This document shows positions 30,664 to 62,370 of a stretch of 64,000 bases of DNA, in pieces (position 1 is the first letter of the stretch; every line of letters begins with the position of its first letter). A program made the position numbers and the translations under genes. Under the pieces are notes generated by a model. The model was not told the DNA's origin, did no database searches, and worked only from the letters and a program-made list of their open reading frames with translations. Origin of the DNA: Candidatus Latescibacterota bacterium (GTDB lineage Bacteria; Krumholzibacteriota; Krumholzibacteriia; WVZY01; JAKEHA01); the NCBI GenBank assembly GCA_963707635.1, contig OY970173.1, positions 800,001 through 864,000 on the forward strand. Direction: 5' to 3'.

Positions 30664-31284
30664 ATGGATAACGCGATCCCTCCCCAGAACGGTCCCGGGA
30701 CTCCCGATCCCTCCACGACCGCCGTCCTGCTGGCGCGCGCGCGCTCCGGAGACGTGGGGGCGCGCGAGGAGCTCTTTCAGCGGTTCCTGCCGACGCTGCG
30801 CCGCTGGGCGCACCGGCGGCTCCCGCTTCGCGCCCGCGACCTCACCGAGACGGCCGACCTGGTGCAGATCACGCTACTGCGCGCGCTCAACCGCATGGAC
30901 CAGTTCGAGGCCCGCGGCGAGGGCGCATTTCTCGGCTACCTCCGGCAGATTCTTTTGAACGTCGTGCGCGAGGAGATTCGACGCTCCGGACGGCGCGGCA
31001 CCCAGGAGTCGCTGCACGAAACGCTGGCCTCACCCGACGCGTCGGTGATCGAACAGATCGTCGGACACGACCAGATGGAGCATTACCAGCGCGGCCTCGA
31101 GTTGCTGGACGAAGAGCAGCGACTGGCCGTTCTCCTGCGTCTCGAGTTCGGTTACACCTATGCGCAGATCGCGGACGCCCTGGGAAAGCCCAGCCCGGAC
31201 GCCGCGCGCATGATGGTCGGGCGGGCATTCGTGGAGCTCGCGCGGATTATCGACGACGGCCATGCCGGACGATCCAGTTCTTGA
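30664..31284 (+). CDS. ECF sigma factor
   Basis: A..GD..A.EELF.R, DLVQ, region 4 Y.QIA..LG....AARM...RA. Confidence 0.9.
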   Translation: MDNAIPPQNGPGTPDPSTTAVLLARARSGDVGAREELFQRFLPTLRRWAHRRLPLRARDLTETADLVQITLLRALNRMDQFEARGEGAFLGYLRQILLNVVREEIRRSGRRGTQESLHETLASPDASVIEQIVGHDQMEHYQRGLELLDEEQRLAVLLRLEFGYTYAQIADALGKPSPDAARMMVGRAFVELARIIDDGHAGRSSS

Positions 31285-34684: not shown

Positions 34685-37503
<2,819 letters not shown>

Positions 37504-38530: not shown

Positions 38531-38623
38531 ATGAGTATCCTGACCATCATCGGGGGCGTGATCGCCGCGCTTCTGCTTGGCTATCTCCTGGTCGCCCTGC
38601 TCTTCCCGGAGAAGCTGTCATGA
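38531..38623 (+). CDS. kdpF: K+-ATPase subunit F
   Basis: ...[20 protein letters not shown] overlap with kdpA. Confidence 0.9.
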   Translation: MSILTIIGGVIAALLLGYLLVALLFPEKLS

Positions 38624-40368
38624 CGCAGAACGCCGTTCTTCAGTGCGTGCTCTACCTGGTTCTGCTGGTAGGGCTCGGTATTCCACTCGGCGCCTACATG
38701 GCGCGCGTGTACGAGGGACAATCGAAGCTGGGCAACCGCCTGTTCGGTCCGCTCGAGCGGCTCGTCTACCGGGTGGCGCGCATACCGGCCGAAGTCGACA
38801 TGAGCTGGAAGCGCTACGCGATCGCCGCGCTGGCGTTCAACTTCCTCGGCGCCGCTCTCGTGTACGCTATTCAGCGCTTGCAAGGCGTGCTGCCGCTCAA
38901 TCCAGCGCACCTGCCGGCCGTCGTTCCGCCGGTGGCCTTCAACACGGCGGTCAGTTTCGCCACCAATACCAACTGGCAGGCCTATGGCGGCGAGACCACG
39001 CTAAGCTATCTGACGCAGATGGCGGCTCTCACAGTGCAGAACTTTGTGTCGGCAGCCACGGGGATGGCGGTGCTGGTGGCGCTCATCCGCGGTTTCGTCC
39101 GTCGCTCGGCCAATGGGGTGGGCTCGTTCTGGATCGACCTCACGCGCAGCACGGTCTACATCCTGCTCCCGCTTTCCATCATTCTGGCGCTGCTGCTGGT
39201 GTCGCAGGGCGTGGTGCAGACGTTCGCTCCTTATAAGGAGGTGGCGTTGCTCGATCCGCTGGCCACCAGCGATTCCACGACGGTCACCACCCAAACGCTG
39301 GCACTCGGACCCGCGGCTTCGCAGATCGCCATCAAACAGCTCGGCACCAACGGCGGCGGTTTCTACAACGTCAACTCCGCGCATCCGTTCGAGAACGCCA
39401 CGCCGTTCTCGAACCTGCTCGAGCTGCTCGCGATCCTGATCATTCCGGCGGGGCTGTGTTTCACGTTCGGCTCGATGGTGCGCGATCGCCGCCAGGGCTG
39501 GGCCGTTCTCGCGGCCATGTTGATCATCTTTGTGCCCCTCCTCTATGTCGCCGTTCATTCCGAGCAGACGCCCAATCCGATTCTCACCCACCTGGGTGCG
39601 GATGCGACGCCGGGCCTCCTGCAATCGGGCGGCAACATGGAGGGGAAGGAAGTCCGTTTCGGGATCACCAACAGCGCGCTCTGGGCCACCGCGACCACGT
39701 CCGCGTCCAACGGTTCCGTCAACTCGATGCACGACAGCTTCATGCCGCTCGGCGGCATGGTGCCGATGTGGCTCATGCAGCTCGGTGAAGTCGTATTCGG
39801 CGGCGTCGGCTCCGGCCTGTACGGAATGCTGATGTTCGCAATCGTCGCGGTGTTCATTGCGGGGCTCATGGTGGGACGCACGCCGGAGTATCTCGGCAAG
39901 AAGATCGAAGCCTACGAGATGAAGATGGCGTCGCTCGCCGTGCTGGTGCCACTATTCGCGGTGCTGGTGGGGACGGCGCTCGCGTGTATCGTGCCCGAGA
40001 CGCAACGGGCCATCGCCAACCCGGGCATCCACGGCTTCAGCGAAATCCTCTACGCCTTCTCGTCGTCGAGCAACAACAACGGCTCCGCCTTCGCCGGCCT
40101 CACCGCGAGCGGAATGTTCTACGCCACCGCGCAGGGCATCAGCATGCTGATGGGCCGTTACTGGATCCTGGTGCCGGTGCTCGCCATCGCGGGCTCGCTG
40201 GCGCGCAAGAAGTACGTACCGCCCAGCGCAGGGACGCTGCCGACGCACACGCCGCTCTTCGTGTTCCTGCTGGTGGGAGTGGTCATTATCATCGGTGCGC
40301 TCACGTTCTTCCCGGCGCTCGCGCTCGGTCCCATCGTCGAGCACCTGCAGCTCGCGCATACCCTGTAA
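38620..40368 (+). CDS. kdpA: K+-ATPase subunit A
   Basis: [41 protein letters not shown]. Confidence 0.98.
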
Positions 40369-40378
40369 GGAGAGCTTT

Positions 40379-42454
40379 ATGTCGACCCATGCCCATTCAC
40401 GGCCGCTGTTCGAACGCGCGATCGTCGCACGCGCGGCCGTTGACTCGTTTCGAAAACTGAACCCGCGCCGCATGGTCCGCAACCCGGTCATGTTCGTCGT
40501 GATGGTGGGGAGCGCCTTCACCACCGTGCTGTTCGTGCACGCCGCGGCGAGCGGAAAGGGCGAAGCCGCCCCCGGCTTCATTCTCGCCATTTCGCTCTGG
40601 CTCTGGTTCACCGTGCTCTTCGCTAACTTCGCCGAAGCCATGGCCGAGGGCCGCGGCAAGGCCCAGGCCGACGCGCTGCGCAAGGCCCGGAAGGCCGTCA
40701 TTGCCAAACGGCTCGAGGCCCCCCGCATGAACGCGACGCGCAACGTGGTCGCGTCCGCCGATCTCCGTCAGGGCGACTTCGTGCTGGTCGAGGCGGGCGA
40801 CCAGATTCCCGGCGACGGTGAAGTGATCGAAGGCGTGGCGTCGGTCGACGAGAGCGCCATTACGGGCGAGAGCGCGCCCGTCATCCGCGAGACCGGGGAA
40901 GACCGCAGCGCCGTCACCGGCGGGACGCGGGTGCTTTCCGACTGGCTCGTCATTCGTATCACCGCCAATCCGGGCGAGACCTTTCTCGACCGGATGATTG
41001 CGATGGTCGAGGGCGCGAAGCGCCAGAAGACGCCCAACGAGATCGCCCTCGACATCCTGCTCGCCAAGCTGACGATCGTATTCCTGCTGGCGACGGTTAC
41101 GCTCCTGCCGTTTTCGATCTACGCGGTGACGAGCTCGGGTCAGGGCTCACCGGTTACGTTGACGGTGCTGGTCGCCCTGCTCGTGTGCCTGATCCCGACC
41201 ACCATCGGCGCGTTGCTTTCGGCGATTGGCATCGCCGGGATGGATCGCATGATCCAGGCGAACGTCATCGCCACCTCCGGGCGCGCGGTGGAAGCGGCGG
41301 GGGACGTCGACGTGCTTCTCCTCGACAAGACCGGGACCATTACCCTGGGCAACCGCCAGGCGTCGGCATTTCTCCCTGCGCCCGGCGTGAGCGAGTCGGA
41401 GCTGGCCGACGCGGCGCAGATTGCCTCGCTCGCGGACGAGACCCCGGAAGGGCGCAGCATCGTGGTGCTCGCCAAGGAGAAGTTCAACCTGCGCGCGCGC
41501 GACGTGCACGCGCTTGGCGCCACCTTCATTCCCTTCAGCGCGCACACGCGCATGAGCGGCGTCGACGTGGACGGCCGGCAGATTCGAAAGGGGGCGGCCG
41601 AAGCCATCGCCCGCTACCTGGACGAGCGCGGCGCGCGCATCCCGGCCGAGGTGCTGCAGACCGTCGAGCAGATCTCGCACCAGGGTGCGACGCCGCTGGT
41701 GGTGGTCGAGAACAACCGCGCGCTCGGCGTCGTGCAGCTCAAGGACATCGTCAAGGGGGGAATCAAGGAGCGCTTCGCCGAGATTCGCCGGGTCGGCATC
41801 CGCACCGTGATGATCACCGGCGACAACCCGCTGACCGCGGCCGCCATCGCGGCCGAGGCTGGCGTCGACGACTTCCTCGCCGAGGCCAACCCGGAGAAGA
41901 AGCTGACGATGATCCGCGACTACCAGGCGAAAGGGCACCTGGTTGCGATGACGGGTGACGGCACCAACGACGCGCCTGCGCTCGCGCAGGCGGATGTCGC
42001 GGTGGCGATGAACACCGGCACCCAGGCGGCCAAGGAAGCCGGGAACATGGTGGACCTCGATTCGAACCCCACCAAGCTCCTCCAGATCGTCGAGATCGGG
42101 AAGCAGATGCTCATGACGCGCGGTTCGCTCACGACTTTCAGCATCGCGAACGACGTCGCGAAGTACTTCGCCATCATCCCGGCCGCGTTCGCGGGGACCT
42201 ATCCAGTGCTCGGGGCGCTCAACATCATGCATCTTCATTCGCCGACGTCGGCGGTGCTGTCCGCGGTGATCTTCAACGCGCTCATCATCATCGCGCTCAT
42301 CCCGCTGGCGCTGCGCGGGATCAAGTACCGCCCGGCGCCGGCCTCCGCGCTGCTGCGCCGGAATCTGATCGTCTACGGCCTCGGCGGCGTGCTGATGCCG
42401 TTCCCGTTCATCAAGCTCATCGACGTCATCCTGGTCGCGATGGGCGTCAAGTAG
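40379..42454 (+). CDS. kdpB: K+-ATPase subunit B
   Basis: [35 protein letters not shown]. Confidence 0.98.
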
Positions 42455-42470
42455 CGCCGAAAGGAAACCC

Positions 42471-43046
42471 ATGTCGCTCGTGCGTCCTGCTCTCATGCTC
42501 CTGCTGGTGTTTACCGTGCTCCTCGGGATCGTGTACCCCGCGGTCATGACGGGTGTCTCCCGCGTGCTCTTCCCCGCGCGGGCGTCCGGGAGCCTCGTGC
42601 GCGAGGGGGACCGCGTGGTTGGCTCCTCGCTGATCGGTCAGCCGTTCGACGACCCCCGCTACTTCTGGGGGCGCCGGTCGGCGACGGGACCGGTGCCGTA
42701 CAACGCGGCTGCCTCCACGGGCTCGAACCAGGGCCCGTCCAACCCCGCCCTGCACGACGCCGTCGCCGCCCGCATCGACGCGCTTCGCGCCGCGGACCCC
42801 GGGAACGACGCACTCGTGCCGATCGACCTGGTCACCGCCTCGGGAAGCGGGCTCGACCCGCACATCTCGCCCGCGGCGGCGTATTACCAGGTGGCGCGCG
42901 TGGCGCGCGCGCGTGGTCTGTCCGAGCTACGGGTTCGCGCGCTGGTTGACGCGGCCGTCGAGGGTCGCACGCTGGGCATGATCGGCGAACCGCGCGTGAA
43001 TGTGCTGCGCCTCAACCTGGCGCTCGATCACGGCAGCGGTTCGTGA
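42471..43046 (+). CDS. kdpC: K+-ATPase subunit C
   Basis: [35 protein letters not shown]. Confidence 0.97.
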
Positions 43047-43077
43047 CGGACGCGGGTACTGGTGATAGACTGACCGC

Positions 43078-45806
43078 GTGAGCCCGGAAACCCGACGCCC
43101 CGATCCCGACGCATTGCTCGAGCGGGTGACCGCGGAAGCCGAACGCGAGCACCGCGCCAAGCTGCGGATTTTTTTTGGCTTTGCCCCTGGGGTCGGCAAG
43201 ACCTACCGCATGCTCCAGGTGGCGCGCGATCTCGTGCGCCAAAAGGTCGACGTCGTGGTCGGCGCGGTCGAGACGCACGGCCGCTATGACACGGGCGGGC
43301 TCCTGCTCGGGCTCGAGATCCTGCCGCGACGCAAGGTCGCCTATCGGGGTCGCGAGATGGAAGAGTTCGACCTCGACGCCGCGCTGGCGCGGCGGCCGCG
43401 CGTGTTGATCCTCGACGAACTCGCCCACACCAACGTGCCCGGCTCGCGCCACACCAAGCGCTGGCAGGATGCCATGGAGCTGCTCGACGCCGGGATCGAC
43501 GTCTACACGACTCTCAACGTCCAGCACGTCGAAAGCCTCAACGACGTGGTCGCGCAGATCACGCGCGTCCAGGTGCGCGAGACCGTCCCCGATTCCGTTC
43601 TCGAACGCGCCGACGCGATCGAATTGGTCGACATCTCCCCCGAAGAACTCCTGGCTCGCCTGCGTGAAGGCAAGGTCTACCTCCCGGATCAGGCGGCCCG
43701 CGCTGCCACGCACTTCTTCCAGCGCGGCAACCTGCTTGCGCTGCGCGAACTCGCGCTGCGGCATACCGCCGAGCAGGTGGAAGCGGACGTCATGGAGTAC
43801 CGCGAGCTGGAGGGAGTGGAAGGGGCGTGGCCGACGTCGGAACGCATCCTGGTCGGCATCGGCGCCTCGCCGACGTCGGGGCGGATCTTGCGCGCGGCCC
43901 GGCGCATGGCGGCGGGGCTGCGAGCGCCATGGGTGGCCGCGTTCGTGGAGCCGCTCGGCATCGCGCCTCTCGGCGAGGGCGACCGAAAGCGTCTCGAAGA
44001 ACACCTGCGTCTCGCGGAATCGCTGGGTGCATCGGTCGTGCAGCTCACGGGCCCGAGCGTGAGCGAAGCGATCCTGGACTACGCGCGCAAACACAACGTC
44101 ACCCGACTCATCATCGGTAAACCGAGGCACACCCGGCTGCGCGACCGTTTCCGGGGTTCGCTCGTGGACCACATCGTCGCGGGCAGCGGCGACATCGACG
44201 TTCACGTCATCTCGGGCGACCCGGAGGGGCCGGCCGAAGTACGCGAGGAGACGGTGCGCCGGGGCCTCGCCGCACCGTGGAGCGCCTACGTGTGGTCGGC
44301 GGCATTCATCGCAGGGACCACCGGACTCGCCGCCGCGGTGCGAGCGGTCTATCCCGTGCCCGATCTCGAGATGATGTATCTCGTCGCCGTCATGCTCACG
44401 GCGTTGCGCTTCGGGCGCGGACCGTCGTTGCTCGCCGCCGCACTCGCCGTGGCCGCCTACGACTTCTTCTTCGTTCCGCCGCGCTTCACGTTTGCGGTGT
44501 CGGATTGGCGTTACCTGCTGACGTTCGGGATGATGTTCGGCGTCGGCTGGCTCATCAGCACGCTGACGATCCGCATTCGCCGGCAGGAGCACGACGCGGT
44601 TGCCCGGGAAGAGCGGACCCGGGCACTGTTCGAGCTGGGTCGCGAGCTCGCGAACGCGCGGACGGTGGCCGCTGCCGCCGACGTGGCGGCCCGGAACGCG
44701 GCCCAGGCATTCGACGCGGCCGCCACCGTGCTCATGCGCGGTCCGGGAGAGGAGCTCGCGCCACGCGCATCGTTTCCGCCCGACGCGAATCTCGACGCCG
44801 GGGACCTCGGAGTCGCGAAGTGGGTATTCGAGCACGGGCGCGTCGCCGGCCAAGGAACCGACACGCTGCCGGGCGCCCGGGCCATTTGCGTCCCCTTGCG
44901 CACGACCGGCGACCCGGTCGGGGTGCTGGCACTCCTGCCGCGGCGCGCGGTTTCGCTGGACGCCGACCAGCGCACGCGCCTCGACGCGCTGTGCACGCAG
45001 GTGGCGTTCGCGCTGGAGCGGGCGCAGCTCGCGCGCGAAGCGGAAGCATCCGCACTGCGGGCGAAGACGGAAGAGATGCGCAGCTCGCTCTTGAGCGCCG
45101 TGTCGCACGACCTGCGCACGCCACTGGCCGCAATCACCGGCGCGGTGTCGACGCTGCGCGACGAGTCCGTGCGGCTGCCCGAGGCGCAACGAGACGAACT
45201 GCTCGCCGCCATTCACGAGGAAGCCGAGCGGCTCGAGCGGCTGGTCGCCAATCTGCTCGACATGACGCGCGTCGAATCGGGCAGCCTGCACGTGCGGCAC
45301 GAGTGGGTGCCGCTCGAAGAACTGGTGGGCGCGGCGTTGACCCGGCTGGAGCGCGTGCTCGACGACCGGCCGGTGCGCGTGTCCCTGGCCGCGGGGCTGC
45401 CGCTGCTGTCCGTGGACCCGTTGTTGTTCGAACAGGTTCTCGTCAACCTGCTGGAGAACGCGGCCAAATACACGCCCGCGGGGTCCGCGATCGACATCGA
45501 GGGCCGCGCCGAGGGGGACGGGGTGGTGGTCGAGGTCAAGGATCGCGGCCCGGGAATCGCCGCCGGAGACGAGCAACGCGTGTTCGAGAAATTCTATCGC
45601 GGGGACAAACCGGTGGCGGTGGGAGCGGGGCTCGGGCTGGCCATCTGCAAGGGAATCGTGGAAGCGCATGGCGGCGCGATCCGCGTCGAGAGCCGGCCCG
45701 GCGAGGGGGCCACGTTTCGCGTGACGCTTCCCCGGGTCGGAGAGGCGCCGTCGGTGGACGCGAATGATGCCGGCTTGCCGCCCGGTGCCGACCGGGGTGA
45801 CGCGGC

Positions 45807-45810
<4 letters not shown>
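43078..45810 (+). CDS. kdpD: Sensor histidine kinase KdpD
   Basis: PGVGKTY.ML, DELAHTN, Usp-like domain, 4 TM, SHDLRTPL, GLGLAIC. Confidence 0.97.
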
Positions 45811-46502
<692 letters not shown>

Positions 46503-46511
46503 GACTTTCTC

Positions 46512-48140
46512 ATGCGACTCATGAAAAAAGAGCGCCGCCAGGAGCACACGACAGAACACGGACGCGAACAGGTCACCCTGATGCGGCCCGAAGGTCCCGA
46601 CCGGGGTCGCGGGCTGTCCTCGGGATTCCCGGCCGATCTCTTCGAACAGGCCCGCGGGCGTCTCCGGCTCCTGGCGGGTTTCTTCTTCTGCGCCTTCCTG
46701 TTCGACGTACTGGTCTTTGTCAGCGTGATGGCGGTCACCCGGTCGCTGCCGCGCGAGAGTTTCCGTACGATCCCCATCCAGGTCGCCGCCCTGGTTGCCG
46801 CGGTGATGTCAGCCGCCGTGTGGTGGGCGGCGAAGAGTCCGCGCATTTCCGCGTCCCGCATCCACGCGGTGGGCCTGGTCTATGAAGTGGTGGTGTGCTC
46901 CATCGCGGCCACGTCGACCTACCTGCAGTACTACCACGATACCGGGCTGGTCCCGTTGCTGACGTGGGTCCCCGCGATCGTCATCATGTTTCCCCTGATC
47001 ATGCCGGGGCCGCCGCGGCGAATGCTCGCGGCCGCGATCATTTCGGGCGCGACGGGACCGCTGGCGCTGTTCCTGCTCGACATGACGGGCAGAGTCGAAG
47101 CCGGTGACGGGTACGTTCCGTCCGTCGTCAGCTCGACGTTTGCGGTGATATTCGCGTACATGGGTGCGCGCGTCATCTACTCACTCGGGCGCGAGGTGGC
47201 CCGGGCGCGCGCGCTGGGGAGTTATCAACTCGAAGTGCGCCTGGGAGAGGGCGGCATGGGGGAGGTCTGGCGCGCGACCCATCGCCTGCTGGCCCGCCCG
47301 GCGGCGATCAAGCTCATTCGGCCGTCGCTGGTGGGAAGCGCGAGCACCGGGGTTTCGGACGAGGCGCGGCGGCGCTTCGAGCGGGAAGCGCAGGTCATCG
47401 CGAGTCTCCGCTCACCGCACACGGTCGACCTGTTCGACTTCGGAGTCGCGGACGACGGCTCCTTCTACTACGCGATGGAGCTGCTCGACGGACTCGACGC
47501 CGATGTGCTCGTGCGCCGCTTTGGTCCCGTCCCAGCGGAGCGCGCGGTGCACCTGCTCCGCCAGGTGTGCCACTCGCTCTCCGAGGCGGAATCCCGCGGC
47601 CTGGTCCATCGGGACATCAAGCCGTCGAATGTATTCGTGTGCCGCTACGGCGAGGACCACGATTTCGTTAAGGTGCTGGATTTCGGCATCGTGAAGTCGC
47701 GACACGATGCGGCCGGCCTGGGACCGGCGCTGACTCGTGAGACCGTGATCCACGGCACCCCCGCGTTCATGGCGCCCGAACAGGCGCTGGGCGGTGACAG
47801 TATCGACGGGCGCGCCGACATCTATGCGGTCGGCTGCGTGGCCTACTGGCTCCTGACCGGACAGCTCGTGTTCACCGCCGACACGCCGTCGGCGTTGCTT
47901 TTGCAGCATATCCAGGCGGTGCCGACCCCGCCTTCGGCACGCGCCGAATTGCCGATCCCCTCGTCCCTGGATGCGATTGTGCTGGCGTGTTTGGCGAAGA
48001 GCCCGGCCGATCGTCCCCGGTCGGCGAAGGAATTGTCGAGCCGGCTGGCAGGTGTCGAAGGGGCGGGCGTGTGGACCGAGGACCGCTGCCGGGAATGGTG
48101 GGAGAAGCACCAGCCGGCCCCGCGCAGCGCGTCGAACTGA
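46512..48140 (+). CDS. Membrane Ser/Thr kinase (N-terminal ~6 TM, C-terminal kinase)
   Basis: GEGGMGEVW, RPAAIK, HRDIKPSN, DFG, GTP.FMAPE. Confidence 0.92.
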   Translation: MRLMKKERRQEHTTEHGREQVTLMRPEGPDRGRGLSSGFPADLFEQARGRLRLLAGFFFCAFLFDVLVFVSVMAVTRSLPRESFRTIPIQVAALVAAVMSAAVWWAAKSPRISASRIHAVGLVYEVVVCSIAATSTYLQYYHDTGLVPLLTWVPAIVIMFPLIMPGPPRRMLAAAIISGATGPLALFLLDMTGRVEAGDGYVPSVVSSTFAVIFAYMGARVIYSLGREVARARALGSYQLEVRLGEGGMGEVWRATHRLLARPAAIKLIRPSLVGSASTGVSDEARRRFEREAQVIASLRSPHTVDLFDFGVADDGSFYYAMELLDGLDADVLVRRFGPVPAERAVHLLRQVCHSLSEAESRGLVHRDIKPSNVFVCRYGEDHDFVKVLDFGIVKSRHDAAGLGPALTRETVIHGTPAFMAPEQALGGDSIDGRADIYAVGCVAYWLLTGQLVFTADTPSALLLQHIQAVPTPPSARAELPIPSSLDAIVLACLAKSPADRPRSAKELSSRLAGVEGAGVWTEDRCREWWEKHQPAPRSASN

Positions 48141-50432
48141 TCAGCCTTCCTCGACGCGCTTGCGGACTTCGGCCAGGTTCAGCTCGATCGACTGGCTCGA
48201 ACGCATCAGATCCTCCAGGACGACTTCACGCGGGCGCGTGCCCGGGGTCTTCCCCCGCGTGTCGTCGAGCAACGGACTCAAGCTGTTCCATATCTCGCGT
48301 GGAAGAACGCTCTCCAGATACTCCAGCCCGGTTCCGCGCAGCACGACGTCGGTCGTGAGCAGTCCCTTGAACGCAATCAGCAACGGGGCGCGCGGGATCA
48401 CGAGCGACAGGATGGTGAACACGTGCTCCATCCGGCGGCTGGCACGCCCGTGCAGCGATTCGTCGATCAGCGCGGGCTCGTCGTTCGCCGGCTCGTCGAT
48501 AAGCTGCTGATCCTCCCAGAGTGACTTGTCGACACGCGTCTCTTTCAGCACCGCCGCGTATACCGTCGCCGCGTCGACCGGCAGCGACGGGAGTCGTTCG
48601 TGGATTCGGGCCAGCGCCCGCGCCGTCTGGTAGCGCACCTCGAACCGGCTGTCGGCGAGCGCGGCTACGAGCCCGTCGTAGGCGCGTGAGGTCGTGCAGG
48701 TGCCGAGGATGCGGGGGACACGCCGGCGGATGGCGAAGTCCTCGTTGGGATCGAGCAGACGGTCGATGAGTTGACCCGTCACCGCCGGCGCGGATTTGGC
48801 CAGCGCGCGCGACGCCCAGCCGGTCACCTCGTCCCAGGCCAGGAGCGAGATCACCTGGGCGGCGAGCGTCGGCGTCAGGGCCCGGGTCTGGCGCAGCTCC
48901 GCGTGCACGCGCCGGGCGTCGCCGGAACGAAGCGCGATCAGGGAAGCAAGCTCCGGGTCCGCCACGGGCGCGAGGGGCTGCGTCGGCGCCGTTTTCAACT
49001 CGGAGATGGCCCCGTCGTCCGCGGATGGGTCCGACGACGAGCCCGGGGAGTCGCCGCGGAGCTCGCCCAGTCGCGCGCCGTCGATCGACATCGACAGGTC
49101 GATGCCGGTGAACGACTCCATCATCATCGTGCGCACGCCGACGGGCTCGTCTCCCTTGATGTCGAGCACGCTGGCCCGCTTGATCAGGCTCTCCTCGAGC
49201 GCACGGATGTATCCCCGGCGCAGCGCTCGCACCACCACGAAGCCCAGCGCCGAAATCAGCACCGCCAGGCCCATGAGGACGTGGCTGGCGATCGCCACCG
49301 GCAGGAGTATGACCGCGCGGATGACCGCGCCGCCGACGACATCCCCCATGCGATCCGCGCCCACGTCGACGATGGTCTTGGTGCTGCGTTTTTCTTCGGG
49401 GGCGACCGGGGTGAAGAGCAGTTCGTACCCGGACCGAAACAACGAACTCTGAATGACCGCTTCGAGGGCGCGCAGAATCCCCAGGCCCGTAAGCCCCATC
49501 ACCGGGAGCGTGACCAGCCCGCCGACGGCCACGATCGCCGGGCGGACGGCCAGCGTGTTTGCAATCCCGGCCCCCTCCAGGAGACGTCGCGTCATGCCGG
49601 CCTGCACGGCGAGCGAGACGACGGACACGGCCGTGTAGAACACCGCAAAGAACCGAACCAGGTCCGCGCCGTTCGCGAAGCTCTGCGCGGCGCGCGCCTT
49701 GAAGAGATAATCGATGAGAGTGGCGGCCACGTTTCCCAGCAGAACGATGAGCGCGAGATTGCGCAGGTAGCCGACGCGCATCAGCACGCGGAAGCCGGAT
49801 TCAGCCGCGCGCTCGTGTTCATGCCTGGCGCGGCCGTCCGGCGGCGACTTCGGGTCCGCGCCGGCGGGCGGCAAGCGGACGAGAAGCAGCCCGCAGACCA
49901 CGTTGAGGCCGGCGATGATCGGCAGCACCCACAGCAGACCGGCGTAAGCACCCACCCGTTCCGCGAGCAGGCCTCCGAAGAGCCCGCCCACCGTGGCCCA
50001 TCCGACGATCCGTCCGATACTGCGTTTGGCCGTCCGGGGGTCGAAGTGTTCGTTGAGGATCGACCAGAATCCCGAAATCAGAATCGAGCCGATCACCGCG
50101 ACGTGGAGGTATACGAGGACCGAGGCCGCCTTCGGGCTGCGCGTGGCGAGAAACCACTCGGCGACGAGCAGGACGCCGCTGGCCACGAAGAACGGCGGCA
50201 TCACGCGGTGCGGTCCGAGCGAGGTCATGGCCCGCGCGGTGAGCAGCACGGCGCCGATCGACAACAGCGCCGACGCGATTAGCACCAGCGGCAGTGCGGA
50301 TACTTCGAAATTGGTCAGGAACAGAGCGTCGCGCGTGGCCTTGGCCGCCACCTGCGTCGCGATCATCGCGAACGCGCAGGCCGATGCGGTGGCGACCGAC
50401 GCAGCGCCGGCCCGCCGGCCGGGGCTAGCCAT
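48141..50432 (-). CDS. NTT/TLC-like MFS transporter fused to HEAT-like repeats
   Basis: KATRDALFL, FW....E.FDPR.AKR, K...D....R.GD..G; C-terminal L.D..FEVR..A.AL repeats. Confidence 0.8.
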   Translation of the reverse strand: MASPGRRAGAASVATASACAFAMIATQVAAKATRDALFLTNFEVSALPLVLIASALLSIGAVLLTARAMTSLGPHRVMPPFFVASGVLLVAEWFLATRSPKAASVLVYLHVAVIGSILISGFWSILNEHFDPRTAKRSIGRIVGWATVGGLFGGLLAERVGAYAGLLWVLPIIAGLNVVCGLLLVRLPPAGADPKSPPDGRARHEHERAAESGFRVLMRVGYLRNLALIVLLGNVAATLIDYLFKARAAQSFANGADLVRFFAVFYTAVSVVSLAVQAGMTRRLLEGAGIANTLAVRPAIVAVGGLVTLPVMGLTGLGILRALEAVIQSSLFRSGYELLFTPVAPEEKRSTKTIVDVGADRMGDVVGGAVIRAVILLPVAIASHVLMGLAVLISALGFVVVRALRRGYIRALEESLIKRASVLDIKGDEPVGVRTMMMESFTGIDLSMSIDGARLGELRGDSPGSSSDPSADDGAISELKTAPTQPLAPVADPELASLIALRSGDARRVHAELRQTRALTPTLAAQVISLLAWDEVTGWASRALAKSAPAVTGQLIDRLLDPNEDFAIRRRVPRILGTCTTSRAYDGLVAALADSRFEVRYQTARALARIHERLPSLPVDAATVYAAVLKETRVDKSLWEDQQLIDEPANDEPALIDESLHGRASRRMEHVFTILSLVIPRAPLLIAFKGLLTTDVVLRGTGLEYLESVLPREIWNSLSPLLDDTRGKTPGTRPREVVLEDLMRSSQSIELNLAEVRKRVEEG

Positions 50433-52146
50433 TCACGACCGTAGGCGCGCCCGTGTCCAGCCTGTGACCGAGGGGCGCCGCGTGGAGGTGGGGGAGGTGC
50501 ATTCGCCACCATTGCTCGGCACGCTGCTGCGTCCAGGCGGGAAGCGTGGCGGCGAGCTCCGAGAGCATTTCGCCGAGCTCCTCCGCGGAGCCCGGCCGGT
50601 CGTCCGGATCCTTCTCCAGACAGGCGAGCACGATCTCCTCCAGCCGCGGCGGCACCTCGATCTCGGTACGCGAAGAAACCGTGGGGGGCTTCTCCTTCAC
50701 GTGCTGGATGAGAATCGACATGGGAGTGTTGCCGGCGAACACCAGCTGCCCGGTCAGCAGCCAGTAGGCGACGCAGCCGAGTGCGTAGATGTCGGCGCGA
50801 CCGTCCACCGGCGCATCCCCGGTCACCATCTCCGGCGCCATGAAGCCCGGGGTTCCGCTGGTGACGCCGGCGCCCGTCAGCTGGGTGATCGTGTCGCCCG
50901 GGTCCTTGACGCTCTTGACCAGGCCGAAGTCGAGCACCTTGATGAAGTCGAAATCGCGGCCGCGGCGGCAGGTGAACATGTTGGCGGGTTTGATGTCCCG
51001 GTGTATCAGGCCGCGGTCGTGGGCGTCGGCGAGAGAATCGCACGCGGCGCGCAGGAAGTGGACCGCCCGCTCCGCGGGTATCGGTCCGGACTCCTGGATC
51101 AGCGACTTGAGGTCGCGACCCTCGAGAAACTCCATTACGTAGTAGAAGACTCCATCCTCGCCGATGCCGAAATCGTAGAGCATGATGGAATGTTGCGACG
51201 TGAGCATCGCCGTCGCCTGCGCCTCGCGCTCGAAACGCCGCAGCAGCGTCCGGGCGGCGGTCCCGTCCCCGGGGGTGCCCAGGGACTCGGGCCGGATCAG
51301 TTTTACCGCCGCCGGGCGGGCGAGCATCCGGTGTTTCGCCCGCCATACTTCGCCCATGCCGCCCGATCCGATCTTGTCGGTGAGCTGATAGCTGCCGAGG
51401 CGCCGGGCCTTGGAAACATCCCGGGCCAGGCGAAACACCCGATACGCAATGGCGTACGCGATGCCGGCGCAGATCAGGACCGGCAGCGCGAGGCGAACCA
51501 TCGCGATCCACGGGGAGCCCTCGAAATCGGCCGGAACACCGTGGACAGCCAGCGAGAGGATGGCGACGGCCGGCACGGTGGCGAATGCCAGCAGGGAGCC
51601 GATGAGCATCTGCCTGGGCGCGAGCGTGACGATGCTCGGATACGCCACCAGCCAGACTCCCACCCAGTTGACGGACTCGATCTCGAACTTCGAGACGCTC
51701 TCCCATCCCCACGACTGGACGGCGATGCCGAGCGCGGACACCACCAGGTAAAACATCGACATGCCCGCGAAGACGCAGGCTTCGCACTTCGTCCTGACGC
51801 ATCGGTAAACGACGACCAGCGAGTAGGTGATCGCGATCAGGGAGGTGACGGTGTCGAACGCGGGGAGAAAAAGGAAGTGACCGGCGTCGGCTATCCAGGT
51901 GATCCAGTCGGCGACGTAGCCGAGAAAGAAAACCGCCGCATAGATCGTCGCGGCAGCGGCGAGCCCGTGAAAGGCGCTCTGCTGCGTCTGGGAATCCAGG
52001 TCGGCGAAATTCGACGGATCGCTTGGACTGCTCGGCTGACTTTCAGCCCGTATGTTGAATTGTGCGGCCACGAGCCTCCCGGTGTGCGCCGGCGCGGCGT
52101 TGGCTCCAACCCCGCGCCCGGGCAGCGGTACGCGCAAGGTTATCAC
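50425..52146 (-). CDS. Membrane Ser/Thr kinase, paralogue of 46512-48140 (start uncertain)
   Basis: GSGGMGEVW, RPAAVK, HRDIKPAN, DFGLVK, GTPGFMAPE; N-terminal TMs. Confidence 0.92.
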   Translation of the reverse strand: MITLRVPLPGRGVGANAAPAHTGRLVAAQFNIRAESQPSSPSDPSNFADLDSQTQQSAFHGLAAAATIYAAVFFLGYVADWITWIADAGHFLFLPAFDTVTSLIAITYSLVVVYRCVRTKCEACVFAGMSMFYLVVSALGIAVQSWGWESVSKFEIESVNWVGVWLVAYPSIVTLAPRQMLIGSLLAFATVPAVAILSLAVHGVPADFEGSPWIAMVRLALPVLICAGIAYAIAYRVFRLARDVSKARRLGSYQLTDKIGSGGMGEVWRAKHRMLARPAAVKLIRPESLGTPGDGTAARTLLRRFEREAQATAMLTSQHSIMLYDFGIGEDGVFYYVMEFLEGRDLKSLIQESGPIPAERAVHFLRAACDSLADAHDRGLIHRDIKPANMFTCRRGRDFDFIKVLDFGLVKSVKDPGDTITQLTGAGVTSGTPGFMAPEMVTGDAPVDGRADIYALGCVAYWLLTGQLVFAGNTPMSILIQHVKEKPPTVSSRTEIEVPPRLEEIVLACLEKDPDDRPGSAEELGEMLSELAATLPAWTQQRAEQWWRMHLPHLHAAPLGHRLDTGAPTVVNG

Positions 52147-52195: not shown

Positions 52196-54779
52196 CTAGA
52201 ACGAGAGACCCGCGTGGATGTAGACCCCGGTGCCTTCCTCGCTCGACGCGATGGAAACGCTCACCGTGTTCGCCGCGTCGAGCAGCGCAAACCAGAACCC
52301 GCCGCCGGCCGCGCTGTGCCACTGATTGGACGATTCTCCCGTGAAGTAGACCCGTCCGGTGTCGCCCAGCGCAAACACGCCCAGACTCCCGGGTACGAAG
52401 ATGTAGACGCGGGCGATCGGGATACGAAGCTCCGCGCTTCCATACAACGAGCCGTCCCCGGCGAAGCGCTGTTGCGGGAATCCTCGCAGCGTGGCACCCC
52501 CGCCCACGTAGGCGGCCTCATCGTAGGGGTAGGCTCCCCACACCCGTTTGCCACCCGCCCGCAGGGCGAGGGTCGGTGTGGTGGGAATCGGAAGCGGCTG
52601 GTACAGGGCGCCCTCGCCATGAACCTCGCCGAAGGTGGTTTCGACGGCTCCGACCGGTGGGTACACGTTACCGTCGACGGCGAAACGGACGCCGCGCGTG
52701 GGAGCCACATCCGAGTCGCGCGTGTCGATGGATAGTCCCGCGCCCGCGCCGGCCTGGAAGAAGTCCTCCGCGCCGTACGGGGGCGCGGTCGTGATGTAGC
52801 GGTCGGGCTCGAGGTCGGTCTTTTTGTACTGCGCGTTGACCTGCAGGGTCGCGGTCCAATGCTGGCCGACCGGCAGGAGCAGCGACGGCTCAACGACGTA
52901 CTGGGTGTGCTTCACCTTGTAGAAATCTTCGTCCTCGCTGGCCTCGGTCTCGTTTCCGTATCCATAGAAGTGCAGAAAGTCCAGCCCCGACGCCCGCACA
53001 TAGAGGCCTGTCGCGACGCGCGTGTTCTCGCGACGGAATTCGCCCCGGTAGTCCGCACCGAAGGATCCGGCCCGGGTGGCGTAGCCGACGCGGATGGTTT
53101 GTTTGCTCGCGTACGGGTCCTTGCGGAATCCGTATCCGAAGGATTGCAAACTGGCGAGGAACAGCACACCCAGGTCGCTGTTGCCGCCGATCCACGGAAT
53201 GAAGATGTTTCTCCGCCCCCAGTCGCGCGGCGGGATCCAGGGGGCCTTCTCGCGTTTCGGAGGCGTGTACGGGCGGGTGTCCAGTTTCGTTCCGGATCCG
53301 CGCAGCACGTCGTTGGTGCCACTCGCGTCCGAGACGAGAAGTCCGGTCCCGGCGCTATCGTCGAAGGTGTCATCGCCACCGCCGCCGATCACGCGCACGG
53401 TGATCTTGCCCGGGCGGCCGGTGGCGGTCAGGCTGTCGTTGCCGCCGCCGAGGTAGATTCGAATCTCGTCGGTTTCGTCCGGATGAAACACGCGATGCAC
53501 GTACGGAGTGCCGGCCGCCGCGACGGACACCTCGACATCGCCATTCTCGCGATGGCCGACCGTCACGACCTCGTCCTGGTCCGTGGCCCGAATGTCGACC
53601 TTGCGCGCGAGGAAGCGATAGAAGCGATCCGCCTCGGCCGCGAGCTGGTCGCGCCGATGGCGCAGCGCGGCTTCCATCCCGGCACCCTCCAGGGCGCGGT
53701 ACTCGGCGGGAATGCGCGCCACCGCCTGCGCGATCACGGCGTCGGTGATGCGCGCCTGCAGACCCGTCGCGACCTCGTCCCAGACCGGTTTCTCCAGCTC
53801 GACCAGGATCCGGCGGTCGCCGTCGCGGCCGTTCCACGTGAGTCCTTCGATCCCGGGATAGTCCTCGCCGAAGCTCACGAACTGGGGTGCGCGCTGACGC
53901 CCCGCGACGACCACCAACCCTTCGAAGCGAACGAAGGCCTGATCGCGGTCCTCGGGAATCGGGCGCCATCGTTCGTCAGCCGGCAGCTTCGCCCACCGCC
54001 ACTGCCCGCGATGACGATCCCAGTCGCCGACGAGGATGTCGACCAGCCGGGCGGTGAGAAACGCGCGCGAATCGGGGCGCGTGGCCGGACTCTCGTCCAT
54101 CCGTTTCCACATCTCCGCGCCGTCCACGATCTCGGTGGCGCCGGCGAATCCGGGCCGCGGGTATTCCTCGAACGTTCCGAGCACCCCGGCGAACACGGAT
54201 TGAAACTCGCCCAGCAGCGAGTCGTCCGGCATCACCACCAGCATCGGATCCGCGTGCAGCACGCCGGCGGCTTCCAGCAGCGGTGGCACGGCCACGGCGC
54301 CCGCCGGGGAAGCTGGACGCGATCTGATCCTGCAACAGTTTGTCGACGAACGTGCCGTGTAGCTCCGGCGGCAGTATCTCGGTGGGATCCTTGTCGAGGC
54401 CGCGGAAGGTGTAGTCGCGGCCGTCGGCGCCCTTCATGGCGAGACCGAGTGTCTGCTGACCGCCCACGCGCCTCACCGGCTGCAGTCCGCCCGCGAAGCG
54501 GTGCAGGTCCAGTTCCGGGATTTCGACCGGCGTCGTCCACAGGCGGCGATAATCGCTTCCCAGCAGGAACCGGTGCAAGTCCCCCGCGTGGTAGTGCTCG
54601 CCCGCGACCACGGTGCGAACGCGCGGGGCGATGGCCGCCGTGCTGTCGGGCGCGCCGCCCGCGTCGGCCGATCCAGCGCTGCCGGCAACGGTGAGCGCCA
54701 GGCCATTCGCGAGCAGCCCGGCCACTGCGCCGGCGCGCTTTCGCCGCGCGGCGCTACTCCTGCGGAACAGGATCGACAC
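52196..54779 (-). CDS. Omp85/BamA-TamA-like outer-membrane protein with N-terminal kinase-like domain (frameshift near 54300)
   Basis: Signal peptide; DTRD...PTRG, LRGF...RFAG, C-terminal Phe; N-terminal GGQQT, GDWDRH..QW, DRDQAF. Confidence 0.8.
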
Positions 54780-56112
54780 GTTGCACCTCCATCAGCGCCC
54801 GGTGACGCCGGCCAATGCCGATGACGATGAGCAGCCATACCAGAATGAACGCCATGTTGACGATGGCGAAGTCCCGGGGTTGCAGCGCGAGCAGGGTTCC
54901 CAGGAATACCAGACCCGCGGACGAGAGGTCGCCGGCGCGCACGAACAGCGTGTCGATCGCGGCCTTGGCCTTGTACTTCGCTTCTCTAGCCGTCGGCAGG
55001 AAGAGTGCCTGACGCGCGGTGTTGTTGAGCGAATAGTCGAGTGAATTCTCGCTGATCTTCGCCATCCGGATGAGCGCGAGCACCGGCACGAACGCGAGTA
55101 TCCCGTACGCGCCCAGCGCGACCACCGGCAGCACATACAGCGCCACCCGCACGCCGAAGCGGCGCAGGAAACGCCCGACCAGGAAGATCTGGATGACGGC
55201 CGTGATCGTGGCCACCCAGGTGAAGTAGTCCGCGTAGAACCTGCCGATGAATTGCTTCACGAAATCGTCGGCGGCCACGCCTTCCATCCTGCCGGCGGCG
55301 GCGAATCGCACCGCCTCGCCCGACACCACCCGGCCGAGGATGTATTCTCCGTTGGTGTTCACGAAGTTGAGCAGCAGCAGCAGCATGGCGATCAAGAACA
55401 GATAGCGGTCCCGCGCCACCAACGCGAATCCACCGCGGCGATCGATCATGGGTGCGGTGGCGGCAGGGTCGTGTGCGACTCGTTGCGTGCGGCGTTGGAC
55501 GATCAGGATGAGCAGCAGATAGCCACCGAGAATGGCGGCGGCAACGAGCATGAGTTGATAGACGTGGAGGCGCCCGATCAGCGCCTTGGAGATGAACCCG
55601 CCGGTGGCGGCGCCCAGGGTCTGGCCGAATCCCAGGATGGCGAAGAGCCGGCGGCCCTGTTCCGGCGTGTAGACGTCGTTGGCGAACGACCAGAACTGGG
55701 CGATGATCATGAGGTTGAAAATCCCCACCCACACGAAGAAGGCGACGCCCAGGCCGGGCGTTCTCGCGACCGCGAGGAAGTAGAAAACCAGGAGGTTGGA
55801 GATGAAGAACAACGTGACGATGCTGATCAGGCGGATGCGATTGACCCGATTCGCGATCGCACTGTAGGCGGGCACCAGAAAGAGGAGTAGGACCGCCTGC
55901 GCCGCCGAGGTATAGCTCTTCAGTTCCGCTCCGCCCCCCGAGAGAATGAGCGGCTCGCGCACGACCTTGAGCACGTAGTACGCGGTGAGCAGCAGGAACA
56001 CCGCAAGCATGAGCAGAACCGCGTTCGTTCCTTCGCCGGCCCTGAGGAACGCGAACGGCCGCAGCATGCTGTCGAGAATTCCTCGATGATTCCGGGGAGC
56101 GCTCTCGCTCAT
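54754..56112 (-). CDS. NTT/TLC (Npt1/Npt2-like) nucleotide translocase
   Basis: YY.LK.VRE.L, QFWSFAND.Y..EQG.RLF, DYSL.NT....LFLP..RE.KYKAK..IDT..VR.GD. Confidence 0.88.
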   Translation of the reverse strand: MSESAPRNHRGILDSMLRPFAFLRAGEGTNAVLLMLAVFLLLTAYYVLKVVREPLILSGGGAELKSYTSAAQAVLLLFLVPAYSAIANRVNRIRLISIVTLFFISNLLVFYFLAVARTPGLGVAFFVWVGIFNLMIIAQFWSFANDVYTPEQGRRLFAILGFGQTLGAATGGFISKALIGRLHVYQLMLVAAAILGGYLLLILIVQRRTQRVAHDPAATAPMIDRRGGFALVARDRYLFLIAMLLLLLNFVNTNGEYILGRVVSGEAVRFAAAGRMEGVAADDFVKQFIGRFYADYFTWVATITAVIQIFLVGRFLRRFGVRVALYVLPVVALGAYGILAFVPVLALIRMAKISENSLDYSLNNTARQALFLPTAREAKYKAKAAIDTLFVRAGDLSSAGLVFLGTLLALQPRDFAIVNMAFILVWLLIVIGIGRRHRALMEVQRVDPVPQE

Positions 56113-56282
56113 TTGCGGCAGTGTACCGCATGGCGGCTGCCGCGGAAAGATGCGACGCCCCGGTGCGGCAGGCGGGATCGACGGGCCGCAAGCGGCGGCA
56201 TCCGTGGGTGCACCGGATGTGCTACAATCCTCCCCCCGCAAGAATGTGCCCCCATGGTTCCCGCACGTAAGGAGGAGAGGTC

Positions 56283-56930
56283 ATGAATCGAATCATCCCA
56301 ATACTACTGATCGCAATGATGGCGACGGTGGGCTGCTCCAAGAAGGCCCTGATCGCCCAGAAGGACGCGGAGATCGCCAGTCTGCAGAGCGACGTGACGG
56401 AGCTAAAGGGGCAGGTCAGTGAACTCCAGGCCAGTCTCGACCAGCAGCAGCAGATGAACGCCCAGTTGAACACCGACCTGGCCGACCTGCGCGAAGAGAA
56501 GCGCATCCTGATCGAGGAGAAAGAAGGCCTCACGCACATCACCCTGGACGGGGCAGCGACGTTCGGCACGGCGCAGGCCGACCTGACCGACGAAGCCAAA
56601 GAAGTCCTGGACCGGGTCTGGAATGTGCTGGCGGACTACCCGGACCGCCGCATCCTGATCGAAGGGCACACGGACAGCCGTCAGATCGCGATGACGTACC
56701 GCGAGAAGTTCGCGTCCAACTGGGAGCTGTCATCCGCCCGCGCGCATTCGGTGCTCCACTATCTGCAGTACCAGCACCACGCGGATCCGAACCGCCTGGC
56801 CGCGGTCGGCTACGCCGCGAGCGAGCCGGTGGCCGACGACTCGACGCCGGAAGGACGGGCCCAGAACCGGCGCGTCGTGATCACGGTGGGCAGCGAAATG
56901 GACGTCGAGGCGAGGATTTCCAACCGGTAG
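56283..56930 (+). CDS. OmpA/MotB-like peptidoglycan-binding lipoprotein
   Basis: Lipobox TVGC; coiled coil; EGHTD, NWELSSARA, R..NRRV. Confidence 0.9.
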   Translation: MNRIIPILLIAMMATVGCSKKALIAQKDAEIASLQSDVTELKGQVSELQASLDQQQQMNAQLNTDLADLREEKRILIEEKEGLTHITLDGAATFGTAQADLTDEAKEVLDRVWNVLADYPDRRILIEGHTDSRQIAMTYREKFASNWELSSARAHSVLHYLQYQHHADPNRLAAVGYAASEPVADDSTPEGRAQNRRVVITVGSEMDVEARISNR

Positions 56931-61562: not shown

Positions 61563-61695
61563 CCGGTTTTTCCCCCGCCTCGGTCCCCTCGTGTAAGCGA
61601 GCGTACAGACTCCCGCCCGCCTGGACGCATTCTTACCTGTGCGAATCCTCGAACACTACACCTGCCCTCAAGGACCCAACCGCGGGAGGAACCAC

Positions 61696-62370
61696 ATGAA
61701 ACCCATAGGAATCGTGCTCGTGGCCGTGACGATGGTGATGGCAACGGGTTGCTCGAAGAAGGAGCTCATCGCCCAGAAGGACGCCGAAATTGCAGGACTG
61801 CGCGCGGATGTATCGCGCCTCGAGAGCGAAGCCGCCGAGCAGAAACGGGTGACGGACGACCTCAATACCCAGCTGGCGGACCTGCAGGAACAGAAGCGCG
61901 TGTGGGTGGAAGAAAAGGACGGCTTGACGTTCATCACCCTGGACGGATCGGCGACCTTCGCCACGGCCCAGGCCGACCTGACCACCGAAGGAACGGAGGT
62001 CCTCGACCGCGTCTGGAGCGTGCTCCAGAACTACCCCGACCGCCGCGTGCTGGTCGAGGGCCACACGGACAGCCGGCCCATCGCGCCGAGCTTTCGCTGG
62101 AAGTATGCGTCGAACTGGGAGCTATCGTCGGCGCGGGCCCACGCCGTGCTCCACTATCTGGAAGGCAAGTACGCCATCGAACCCACTCGTCTCGCAGCCG
62201 TCGGGTACGGCGAGAACGATCCCGTCGCCGACAACGAGAGCCCGGAGGGGCGCGCGCAGAACCGTCGCGTCGTCATCACCGTGGGGAGCAAGGCGTCGGT
62301 CGAGCAGCGCAAGTCGGAGGCACAGGTCAGCGCCGTCGGGGCGCCGGACCTCGAGCGGAGAAGCGACTAG
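61696..62370 (+). CDS. OmpA/MotB-like lipoprotein, paralogue of 56283-56930
   Basis: GCSKK.LIAQKDAEIA shared with the paralogue; EGHTD; NWELSSARA. Confidence 0.9.
   Translation: MKPIGIVLVAVTMVMATGCSKKELIAQKDAEIAGLRADVSRLESEAAEQKRVTDDLNTQLADLQEQKRVWVEEKDGLTFITLDGSATFATAQADLTTEGTEVLDRVWSVLQNYPDRRVLVEGHTDSRPIAPSFRWKYASNWELSSARAHAVLHYLEGKYAIEPTRLAAVGYGENDPVADNESPEGRAQNRRVVITVGSKASVEQRKSEAQVSAVGAPDLERRSD

Follow-up and report, generated by a model that had tools for sequence, protein, structure and literature searches.

A predicted atypical-kinase domain on an Omp85 barrel, encoded in a nucleotide-carrier operon of a Candidatus Latescibacterota bacterium

The 64,000-nucleotide window analysed here, taken from contig OY970173.1 of a Candidatus Latescibacterota bacterium (assembly GCA_963707635.1, positions 800,001 to 864,000), carries on its minus strand a gene, hereafter the fusion gene, whose product combines a signal-peptide-like N-terminus, a domain with a predicted atypical-kinase fold and a C-terminal Omp85 barrel. 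As far as found, it is a variant of a known Omp85 subfamily placed in an undescribed nucleotide-carrier operon, and its kinase-like domain has been listed in print but apparently not studied. Our favoured reading, held at slightly less than an even chance, is that the protein is a kinase which faces the periplasm beneath its Omp85 barrel, receives ATP through a neighbouring carrier of the NTT family and acts on an envelope substrate. An earlier note, made from the letters of this DNA, had proposed an exported kinase or pseudokinase tethered to a barrel; the kinase-fold model, the conserved Asp and His residues and the signal-like N-terminus lend predictive support to that proposal. The flanking carriers and a previous tabulation of the domain are points absent from that note.

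All folding was done with AlphaFold on intact homologues and not on the gene of the window, which is split by a frame break. The N-terminal domain of homologue L005, which is here 77% identical to P0002, the nearest protein to the fusion (859 residues), was modelled alone with a predicted local distance difference test score (pLDDT) of 94.3 and a predicted template modelling score (pTM) of 0.93. Foldseek matched it to CtkA (E 4.7e-6), PI4KIIalpha (E 1.1e-5) and HipA (E 8.7e-4), as well as to CotH and Fam20. In VIA-align, the leading structures were PI4KIIalpha (4pla; Z 15.0, root-mean-square deviation (rmsd) 5.0, 266 residues aligned), CotH (5jda; Z 14.8, rmsd 4.3, 249 aligned) and CtkA (3akj; Z 13.4, rmsd 4.4, 215 aligned); the top rows were kinases of the PI3K/PI4K/HipA/CotH/Fam20 group, and kinase-superfamily entries occurred throughout the list. 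The domain is thus predicted to have a two-lobed atypical-kinase fold, and the kinase-like N-terminus suggested by the earlier note finds its counterpart in the model.

At the sequence level the resemblance is faint. Neither Pfam nor NCBIfam has a model of the domain, and no Pfam family scored above its cut-off: the best was CotH at E 0.005, with 4 of 96 members matching it when E values up to 1 were admitted, and the curated cut-offs for HipA and CotH were not reached. Neighbours in the Atlas stood at just 0.78-0.79. A sequence-profile search of the PDB with profile A1 returned nothing, and the sole notable match, to CtkA at E 0.17, came from profile A3; it places D-R-H-x-x-Q opposite the D-R-H-N-G-N of CtkA and the Asp of D-R-D opposite the next Asp.

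The proposed active-site motifs lie on the minus strand in the order originally described, GGQQT, YTFRGLDK, the catalytic-loop segment and IPEDRDQAF (Table 1). When the downstream protein was shuffled 20000 times, 5 of the shuffled sequences contained the pattern D.H..[NQ] followed by D...[AS]F, which was composed after viewing the sequence. Conservation was assessed in 135 representatives, the top scorers of a HMMER search without word seeds. Loci collected earlier had been fetched by peptide patterns spanning both motifs, and motif conservation among them is partly circular because the patterns covered both motifs, a bias that is smaller for the 135 representatives; R73, K77 and D98 lie outside these patterns. 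Seven residues (L005 numbering) are invariant in all 135 representatives, namely R73, K77, D205, D207, R208, D230 and D232, while H209 is present in 128, so that the Asp and His residues are indeed conserved among homologues; conservation is comparable in 236 other homologues. Position 212 is Gln in 126 representatives and Asn in 9: the replacement of Asn by Gln that the earlier note had remarked on is the family norm, although Asn also occurs.

In kinases the ATP-binding Lys sits on the third strand of the N-lobe (β3). In the models of this family an invariant Arg closes the third N-lobe strand, with the invariant Lys four residues further on and a near-invariant Asp (D98) in the following helix, and the Arg appears to occupy the expected position of the β3 Lys. 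In PI4KIIalpha, the K152A substitution is inactivating according to the consulted part of PMC3974213. The invariance of the active site points to a functional nucleotide site whose residues are non-canonical; phosphotransfer is not proven by it.

Export is suggested by an N-terminus that resembles a signal peptide in 97 of 97 full-length homologues, as opposed to 53 of 432 internal control windows (by our own hydrophobicity heuristic, not SignalP), in agreement with the signal peptide first read from the gene. The barrel is well supported: PF01103 matched at E 2.5e-13 (50.7 bits; cut-off 24), and the modelled barrel aligned to TamA with Z 28.0 (rmsd 3.0, 289 aligned), BamA also being matched. 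It is present in all 121 representatives of at least 750 residues; the match is absent from 9 of the 135, most of them apparently truncated. In the full-length model of P0002 (pLDDT 88.5, pTM 0.82), residues 1-47 form a disordered leader and residues 50-390 a mixed domain; short β strands follow at 392-499, then a linker that is extended and conserved, and finally 16 long strands at 521-856. Neither a POTRA nor a PF00149 family matched the fusion gene, which scored 33 bits against a BamA cut-off of 297. The lack of POTRA domains noted earlier therefore holds, the region in front of the barrel modelling as a kinase fold and β-rich linker, and so does the absence of a phosphatase domain.

The β-rich linker was first described as carrying GG.G.D repeats. 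The motif is there, but in only one canonical and one degenerate copy; one GGxGxD match occurs in 67 of 99 homologues of 800-900 residues and none in the other 32. The model NF046115 matched the linker at E 0.022, far below its cut-off, and a Ca-binding repeat is a lead only. An Atlas search with the linker gave just unnamed clusters at 0.89-0.90. Indirect evidence leads to the prediction that the kinase-fold domain is periplasmic and near the barrel mouth: several TamA, BamA, FhaC, CdiB and Sam50 chains align from model residues 497-509, ahead of their own barrels, and seven porin or VDAC rows start at residues 286-306, the segment after D-R-D. The Omp85 stretches aligned ahead of the barrels are ones that we take to be periplasmic POTRA domains. 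Stand-alone copies of the domain were also considered, but none was demonstrated to be a genuine gene: each of the 14 short hits inspected on long contigs runs out into a tail that is off-frame or truncated.

The fusion gene belongs to a tightly packed minus-strand run in the order NTT, kinase-barrel fusion, membrane Ser/Thr kinase and NTT-HEAT. The NTT gene scored 45.7 bits against PF03219 (cut-off 21) and matched the solved ADP/ATP carrier 9j3n at E 1e-6. A tblastn search found two NTT homologues in the genome, and both flank the fusion gene. The order, including the position of the Ser/Thr kinase, is retained in six congeners (L118-L123). In one of these a 1427-residue frame (L121:8201-12481) joins the kinase domain and a partial barrel to the Ser/Thr kinase, which is probably an assembly frame error. 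PADLOC gave no hit for the fusion, and a promoter scan at the locus returned 0 sites; terminator-like hits there were of no diagnostic value.

The association with NTT carriers extends across the phylum. Among 181 phylum genomes that are at least 80% complete, the fusion has a patchy distribution, occurring in 19, and 72 of the 181 carry the NTT clade of the operon, delimited by a cut-off of E 1e-60 at a gap in the table (best E at or below 1.7e-63 inside, next 2.4e-45). All 72 hold either the fusion or an exported kinase-like lipoprotein, compared with 17 of the 109 genomes that lack the clade (a fusion fragment in G031 was left out of this comparison), and in 56 of the 72 (45 of 59 outside the fusion's own genus) the NTT lies within 10 kb of the exported kinase-like gene.

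The lipoprotein, of about 570 residues, is found in 72 of the 181 phylum genomes. It has at least 4453 homologues, and none of the 120 that were listed carries a precomputed Pfam domain. In genomes of the same order without the fusion it follows an Omp85 gene and precedes an NTT gene (L104:1651-6478, L105:2821-7472), or is accompanied by genes for a phosphoesterase, an NTT-HEAT protein and a cNMP protein (L113:6081-13984, L115:5907-12136). It is absent from all 16 genomes of the fusion's genus and present in all five other genomes of its family; both genes occur in full only in G167. K, D-x4-N and (D)FG residues are invariant throughout the lipoprotein family, and a PDB search with it gave no relevant match. 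The possibility that it is a split form of the fusion domain found no support, profile-profile comparison giving probabilities of 7% and 17% that covered the C-terminal helices only; judged from the sequences, it would be related to the fusion domain at most remotely. The family strengthens the NTT link.

The fusion family is large, comprising 2765 clusters at 50% identity (E up to 1e-10) and includes cultured Bacteroidota such as Pedobacter and Pontibacter. Neighbours were surveyed in 79 distant loci from many phyla, 26 of which are shorter than 11 kb. These were an SdiA-regulated/phytase-like propeller (27 loci), a phosphoesterase, fused or separate (24), DUF4956 (20), a Ser/Thr kinase (16), NTT (12), PycTM (11) and PPK1 (9). 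A neighbour in 28 loci that had been considered a phosphoesterase was rejected as such, being the propeller. The 12 NTT-linked loci come from Gemmatimonadota, Acidobacteriota and Pseudomonadota. In a quick tree of 96 rows, none omitted, all 21 NTT-linked rows fall in one branch of 41 rows from four phyla (SH-aLRT 94). Several loci, among them L043, L048, L061 and L065, carry two copies of the fusion beside DUF4956 and the propeller, and sometimes PPK1. In Bacteroidota (L089-L093, L100, L101) a phosphoesterase-kinase-barrel gene often adjoins an HD-PycTM gene and sometimes ppk1. P0082, P0101 and similar proteins have a carboxypeptidase-regulatory-like domain ahead of the kinase domain.

The subfamily itself has been described before. 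Heinz and Lithgow (2014; PMC4104836) defined an Omp85 'Metallo' group, and in part 1 of 3 of their Table S3 the Phyre2 hit to CtkA (3akj) stands at 99.6-99.8 in all 34 Metallo rows, 8 of which have an N-terminal CtkA-like domain, no phosphoesterase and the label 'truncated'. Their Table S2, as far as consulted, lists one Metallo protein with PF08757 CotH. The main text at hand has 0 occurrences of 'kinase' or 'CtkA', calls PF00149 a metalloprotease, and describes no link to NTT. The CtkA-like domain is therefore not new, having been tabulated in 2014 and left undiscussed, and the core inference of the earlier note was already in print because Table S3 lists the CtkA hit. The kinship with Bacteroidota phosphoesterase-Omp85 fusions that the note pointed to is real (L089, L093): profile A1 matches PF00149 fusions of 1240-1315 residues from Pedobacter and Pontibacter at E ~1e-100, with the same domain and barrel. 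The present fusion differs from these in that it has no N-terminal PF00149 and its kinase domain begins at residue ~53. Proteins of the 'truncated' type have signal peptides here, and no other form was retrieved as often: of 135 representatives in a query-biased sample, 5 are longer than 1150 residues. What is added is that the architecture without the phosphoesterase is complete in itself and widespread, that its active site is invariant and that it is coupled to NTT carriers. No paper on a kinase-barrel-NTT system was found in a literature search made largely without subscription journals.

Other known systems share parts of this design. CtkA, HipA/HipT, CotH, PI4KIIalpha and Fam20C have the fold (Z 10-15) and a D-R-H catalytic loop in common with the fusion, from which they differ by identities of only 8-14%, by its Arg and Gln substitutions and by its barrel tether. 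The nearest structural relatives of PI4KIIalpha are given as CtkA, Fam20 and actin-fragmin kinase (PMC3974213, consulted in part), and CotH and Fam20C work outside the cytoplasm (10.1101/2020.02.18.954925, likewise). Unlike HipBA toxin-antitoxin systems, the fusion has a signal-like N-terminus and a barrel, and no adjacent antitoxin gene was seen in the operon, its neighbours being NTT and the Ser/Thr kinase. PlpD, a patatin-Omp85 protein of type Vd, similarly places an enzyme domain N-terminal to an Omp85 barrel, but has POTRA and lipase domains (PMC4104836, in the part available), neither of which is present in the fusion. The insertases BamA and TamA resemble it in the predicted 16-strand barrel, the RGF/Y-type loop motif and the C-terminal aromatic residue, and differ from it in its lack of POTRA domains and its patchy spread. 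Both carrier architectures flanking the fusion gene, NTT and NTT-HEAT, are known from free-living bacteria (Major et al. 2017, PMC5381601), where they were reported as uncharacterised; the main text of that paper, as available, does not contain 'Omp85', 'kinase', 'periplasm' or 'outer membrane'.

The favoured reading, a periplasmic kinase supplied by NTT, draws on the motifs, barrel, operon order, signal-like N-terminus and co-occurrence as observed, and on a predicted fold and membrane side. The fusion protein would be exported by Sec and inserted by BAM. The Asp of D-R-H would act in catalysis, the Gln/Asn and the Asp of D-R-D would coordinate Mg, and the Arg and Lys would grip the phosphates. 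Gene linkage suggests that NTT may exchange cytoplasmic ATP for periplasmic ADP, that the membrane Ser/Thr kinase and NTT-HEAT may regulate nucleotide supply, and that a fused or adjacent calcineurin-like phosphoesterase may remove the mark in other lineages. For the substrate, the likeliest guess is a protein or a lipid located at the mouth of the barrel, because the closest folds belong to kinases of proteins and lipids. According to the consulted part of a 2020 review (PMC7432876), the periplasm of E. coli contains ATP, by an inner-membrane route that is called unknown.

A number of observations weigh against this reading. The same review reports ATP-hydrolysing enzymes in the periplasm, and the site is non-canonical, with an apparent Arg at the expected β3 Lys, Gln for Asn and possibly Asp at the αC Glu. 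The NTT is just distantly related to solved carriers, as its match to 9j3n indicates. Characterised NTTs import ATP. Two queries found no phosphoesterase homologue in this genome. The phylum genomes are kin and not independent, and the NTT cut-off was picked after seeing the table; 16 of the 72 NTTs have no gene for an exported kinase next to them. Two NTTs of the clade lie beside other metabolic genes, namely aminotransferase-III and CN-hydrolase genes (L102:7957-11696) or NUDIX and epimerase genes (L103:6318-9557), which hints at other NTT substrates. The kinase reading of the lipoprotein is itself drawn from invariant residues and a sub-threshold HipA_2 match (E 0.009) in one of four members. 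Among the 79 distant loci, 67 have no NTT in the available flanks, and many have DUF4956, the propeller, PycTM or PPK1 instead; the NTT link of the fusions may have a single origin, because all NTT-linked fusions share one branch.

A rival reading, which we consider unlikely, is an uptake system, in which the barrel admits nucleotides or phosphorylated solutes, the kinase-fold domain binds or gates them and the NTT imports them into the cytoplasm for scavenging. Import is what known NTTs do. PMC5381601, as far as consulted, describes them in parasites and plastids. Scavenging would suit the gene neighbours, which include phosphoesterases, phytase-like propellers, PPK1 and in one case a phosphate porin, as well as the post-DRD segment seemingly near the barrel mouth. 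Yet the full catalytic-type Asp set is invariant, beyond what mere binding should need, and the solved BamA and TamA barrels are shut to the outside (PMC4104836, part available). Somewhat less likely again is a different chemistry or donor, the protein being a pseudokinase, ATPase, AMP-transferase, or polyphosphate or other-donor kinase, with DUF4956/PPK1 and NTT as alternative suppliers. The Arg-rich, non-canonical active site leaves room for this, SelO shows that a kinase fold can AMPylate (10.1101/2020.02.18.954925, seen in part), and cotH, polyphosphate polymerase and DUF4956 genes are contiguous in Gram-positive pel clusters (10.1101/768473, seen in part). NTT never occurs together with DUF4956, the propeller or PPK1 in the 79 loci, but this exclusion is perhaps mere history, because gene contexts follow the tree; in the alignment with CtkA, moreover, D-R-H and the second Asp both line up.

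The least probable of the readings considered is a type Vd-like autotransporter, in which the kinase domain is threaded through its own barrel to act at the cell surface. The analogy with PlpD was raised for the Metallo group in the accessible part of PMC4104836, and the GGxGxD-like motifs and a conserved 20-residue linker ahead of strand 1 are in keeping with it. The fusion has no POTRA domain, however, the model seems to place the linker on the POTRA side, and an inner-membrane carrier would give the surface no direct supply; translocation in type Vd is itself called unresolved in a 2026 review (PMC13721041, seen in part).

The gene in the window is interrupted. It starts with GTG, preceded by GGAGG 6 bases upstream, and the start overlaps the end of the NTT gene; its span of 2584 nucleotides is a whole number of codons plus one base. 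The upstream frame encodes the signal-like N-terminus, GGQQT and YTFRGLDK, and the downstream frame DWDRHRGQW, IPEDRDQAF and the barrel. The one-base indel flagged near 54300 by the earlier note is borne out by this length and by 10 congener loci that read through the break point in a single frame. The extra base is very probably an assembly error, leaving the gene intact in this strain, because the congener genes are intact at ~860 residues (open frames of ~850-880). In run X2, two contigs lack one base at 54306; they belong to relatives and not to this strain, and show 7-8 further differences. A real extra base, which would make this copy a recent pseudogene independent of family function, is unlikely. 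It gains from the lack of a read set for this strain, no run having matched half of the query words, but intact P0002 shares 92-94% identity with each of the two halves, the three adjoining operon genes are intact, and the genome assembly (G000), a single 3.2-Mb contig, has frame changes in three other genes (80 ortholog queries; 8 hits, 5 of them the fusion gene). In the window the P-type ATPase gene at 34685-37503 is in pieces, as several overlapping frames, a kinase/FG-GAP gene (31262-33662) lies in two frames and another kinase has a frame change at ~1012-1891; all three are consistent with assembly indel errors.

Table 1. Features of the fusion gene and its neighbours (positions in the window)
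Feature	Coordinates	Strand	Basis or remark
Kinase-fold/Omp85 fusion gene	52196..54779	-	~860 residues in congeners; one extra base at ~54300-54306 splits the frame
Predicted Sec signal peptide (end approximate)	54660..54779	-	heuristic; residues 1-47 have low pLDDT
Atypical kinase-fold domain (PI4K/CotH/CtkA/HipA-like), predicted periplasmic	53591..54620	-	structure models
Gly-rich loop GGQQT	54450..54464	-	motif position and conservation
Third N-lobe strand YTFRGLDK, invariant Arg and Lys	54390..54413	-	predicted secondary structure and conservation
Catalytic loop D-W-D-R-H-x-x-Q, within DILVGDWDRHRGQW	53999..54040	-	aligned to CtkA N-F-D-R-H-N-G-N
Metal-binding motif D-R-D-Q-A-F in IPEDRDQAF (putative DFG equivalent)	53933..53959	-	CtkA alignment and conservation
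β-rich linker, one canonical and one degenerate GGxGxD	53240..53590	-	short strands 392-499 in model
WIPPRDWG conserved linker, predicted 16-strand Omp85 barrel, LRGF loop motif, C-terminal Phe	52199..53239	-	profile and model
NTT/TLC-family nucleotide-carrier homologue (true start probably ~56130)	54754..56241	-	PF03219 E 5e-12
Ser/Thr kinase anchored in the membrane, with a hydrophobic N-terminal half and a Pkinase domain at the C-terminus	50425..52146	-	PF00069 E 7e-41
NTT-HEAT fusion, start overlaps Ser/Thr kinase stop	48141..50432	-	PF03219 E 6e-11, HEAT_2 E 1e-4
Second, similar membrane Ser/Thr kinase	46512..48140	+	convergent, abuts NTT-HEAT stop; operon link not established

The second membrane kinase has a homologue of 67% identity at the same place in L118. 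Just upstream of it, at 38620-46502, lie genes that are presumably kdpA, kdpB, kdpD and kdpE-like, named from their translations. On the other side of the operon, a block of sigma-70, Crp-like and two-component genes is flanked by two lipoproteins that resemble each other and combine a coiled coil with an OmpA domain (56283-56930 and 61639-62370; profile scan on the first only).

The operon joins two questions, namely the route of ATP to the periplasm (PMC7432876) and the role of NTT in free-living bacteria (PMC5381601), as far as these sources were seen. It also offers a testable unit, consisting of a carrier and a soluble domain of ~340 residues in which the targets for mutation are clear. 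More tentatively than the reading of this one operon, many diderms may run a dedicated periplasmic ATP supply, in which NTT exports ATP to an Omp85-held kinase that a phosphoesterase opposes, the kinase being fused to the barrel here and a separate lipoprotein in sister genera. If true, such a dedicated supply would account for the NTTs of free-living bacteria, and periplasmic ATP supply would be a bacterial counterpart of secretory-pathway phosphorylation.

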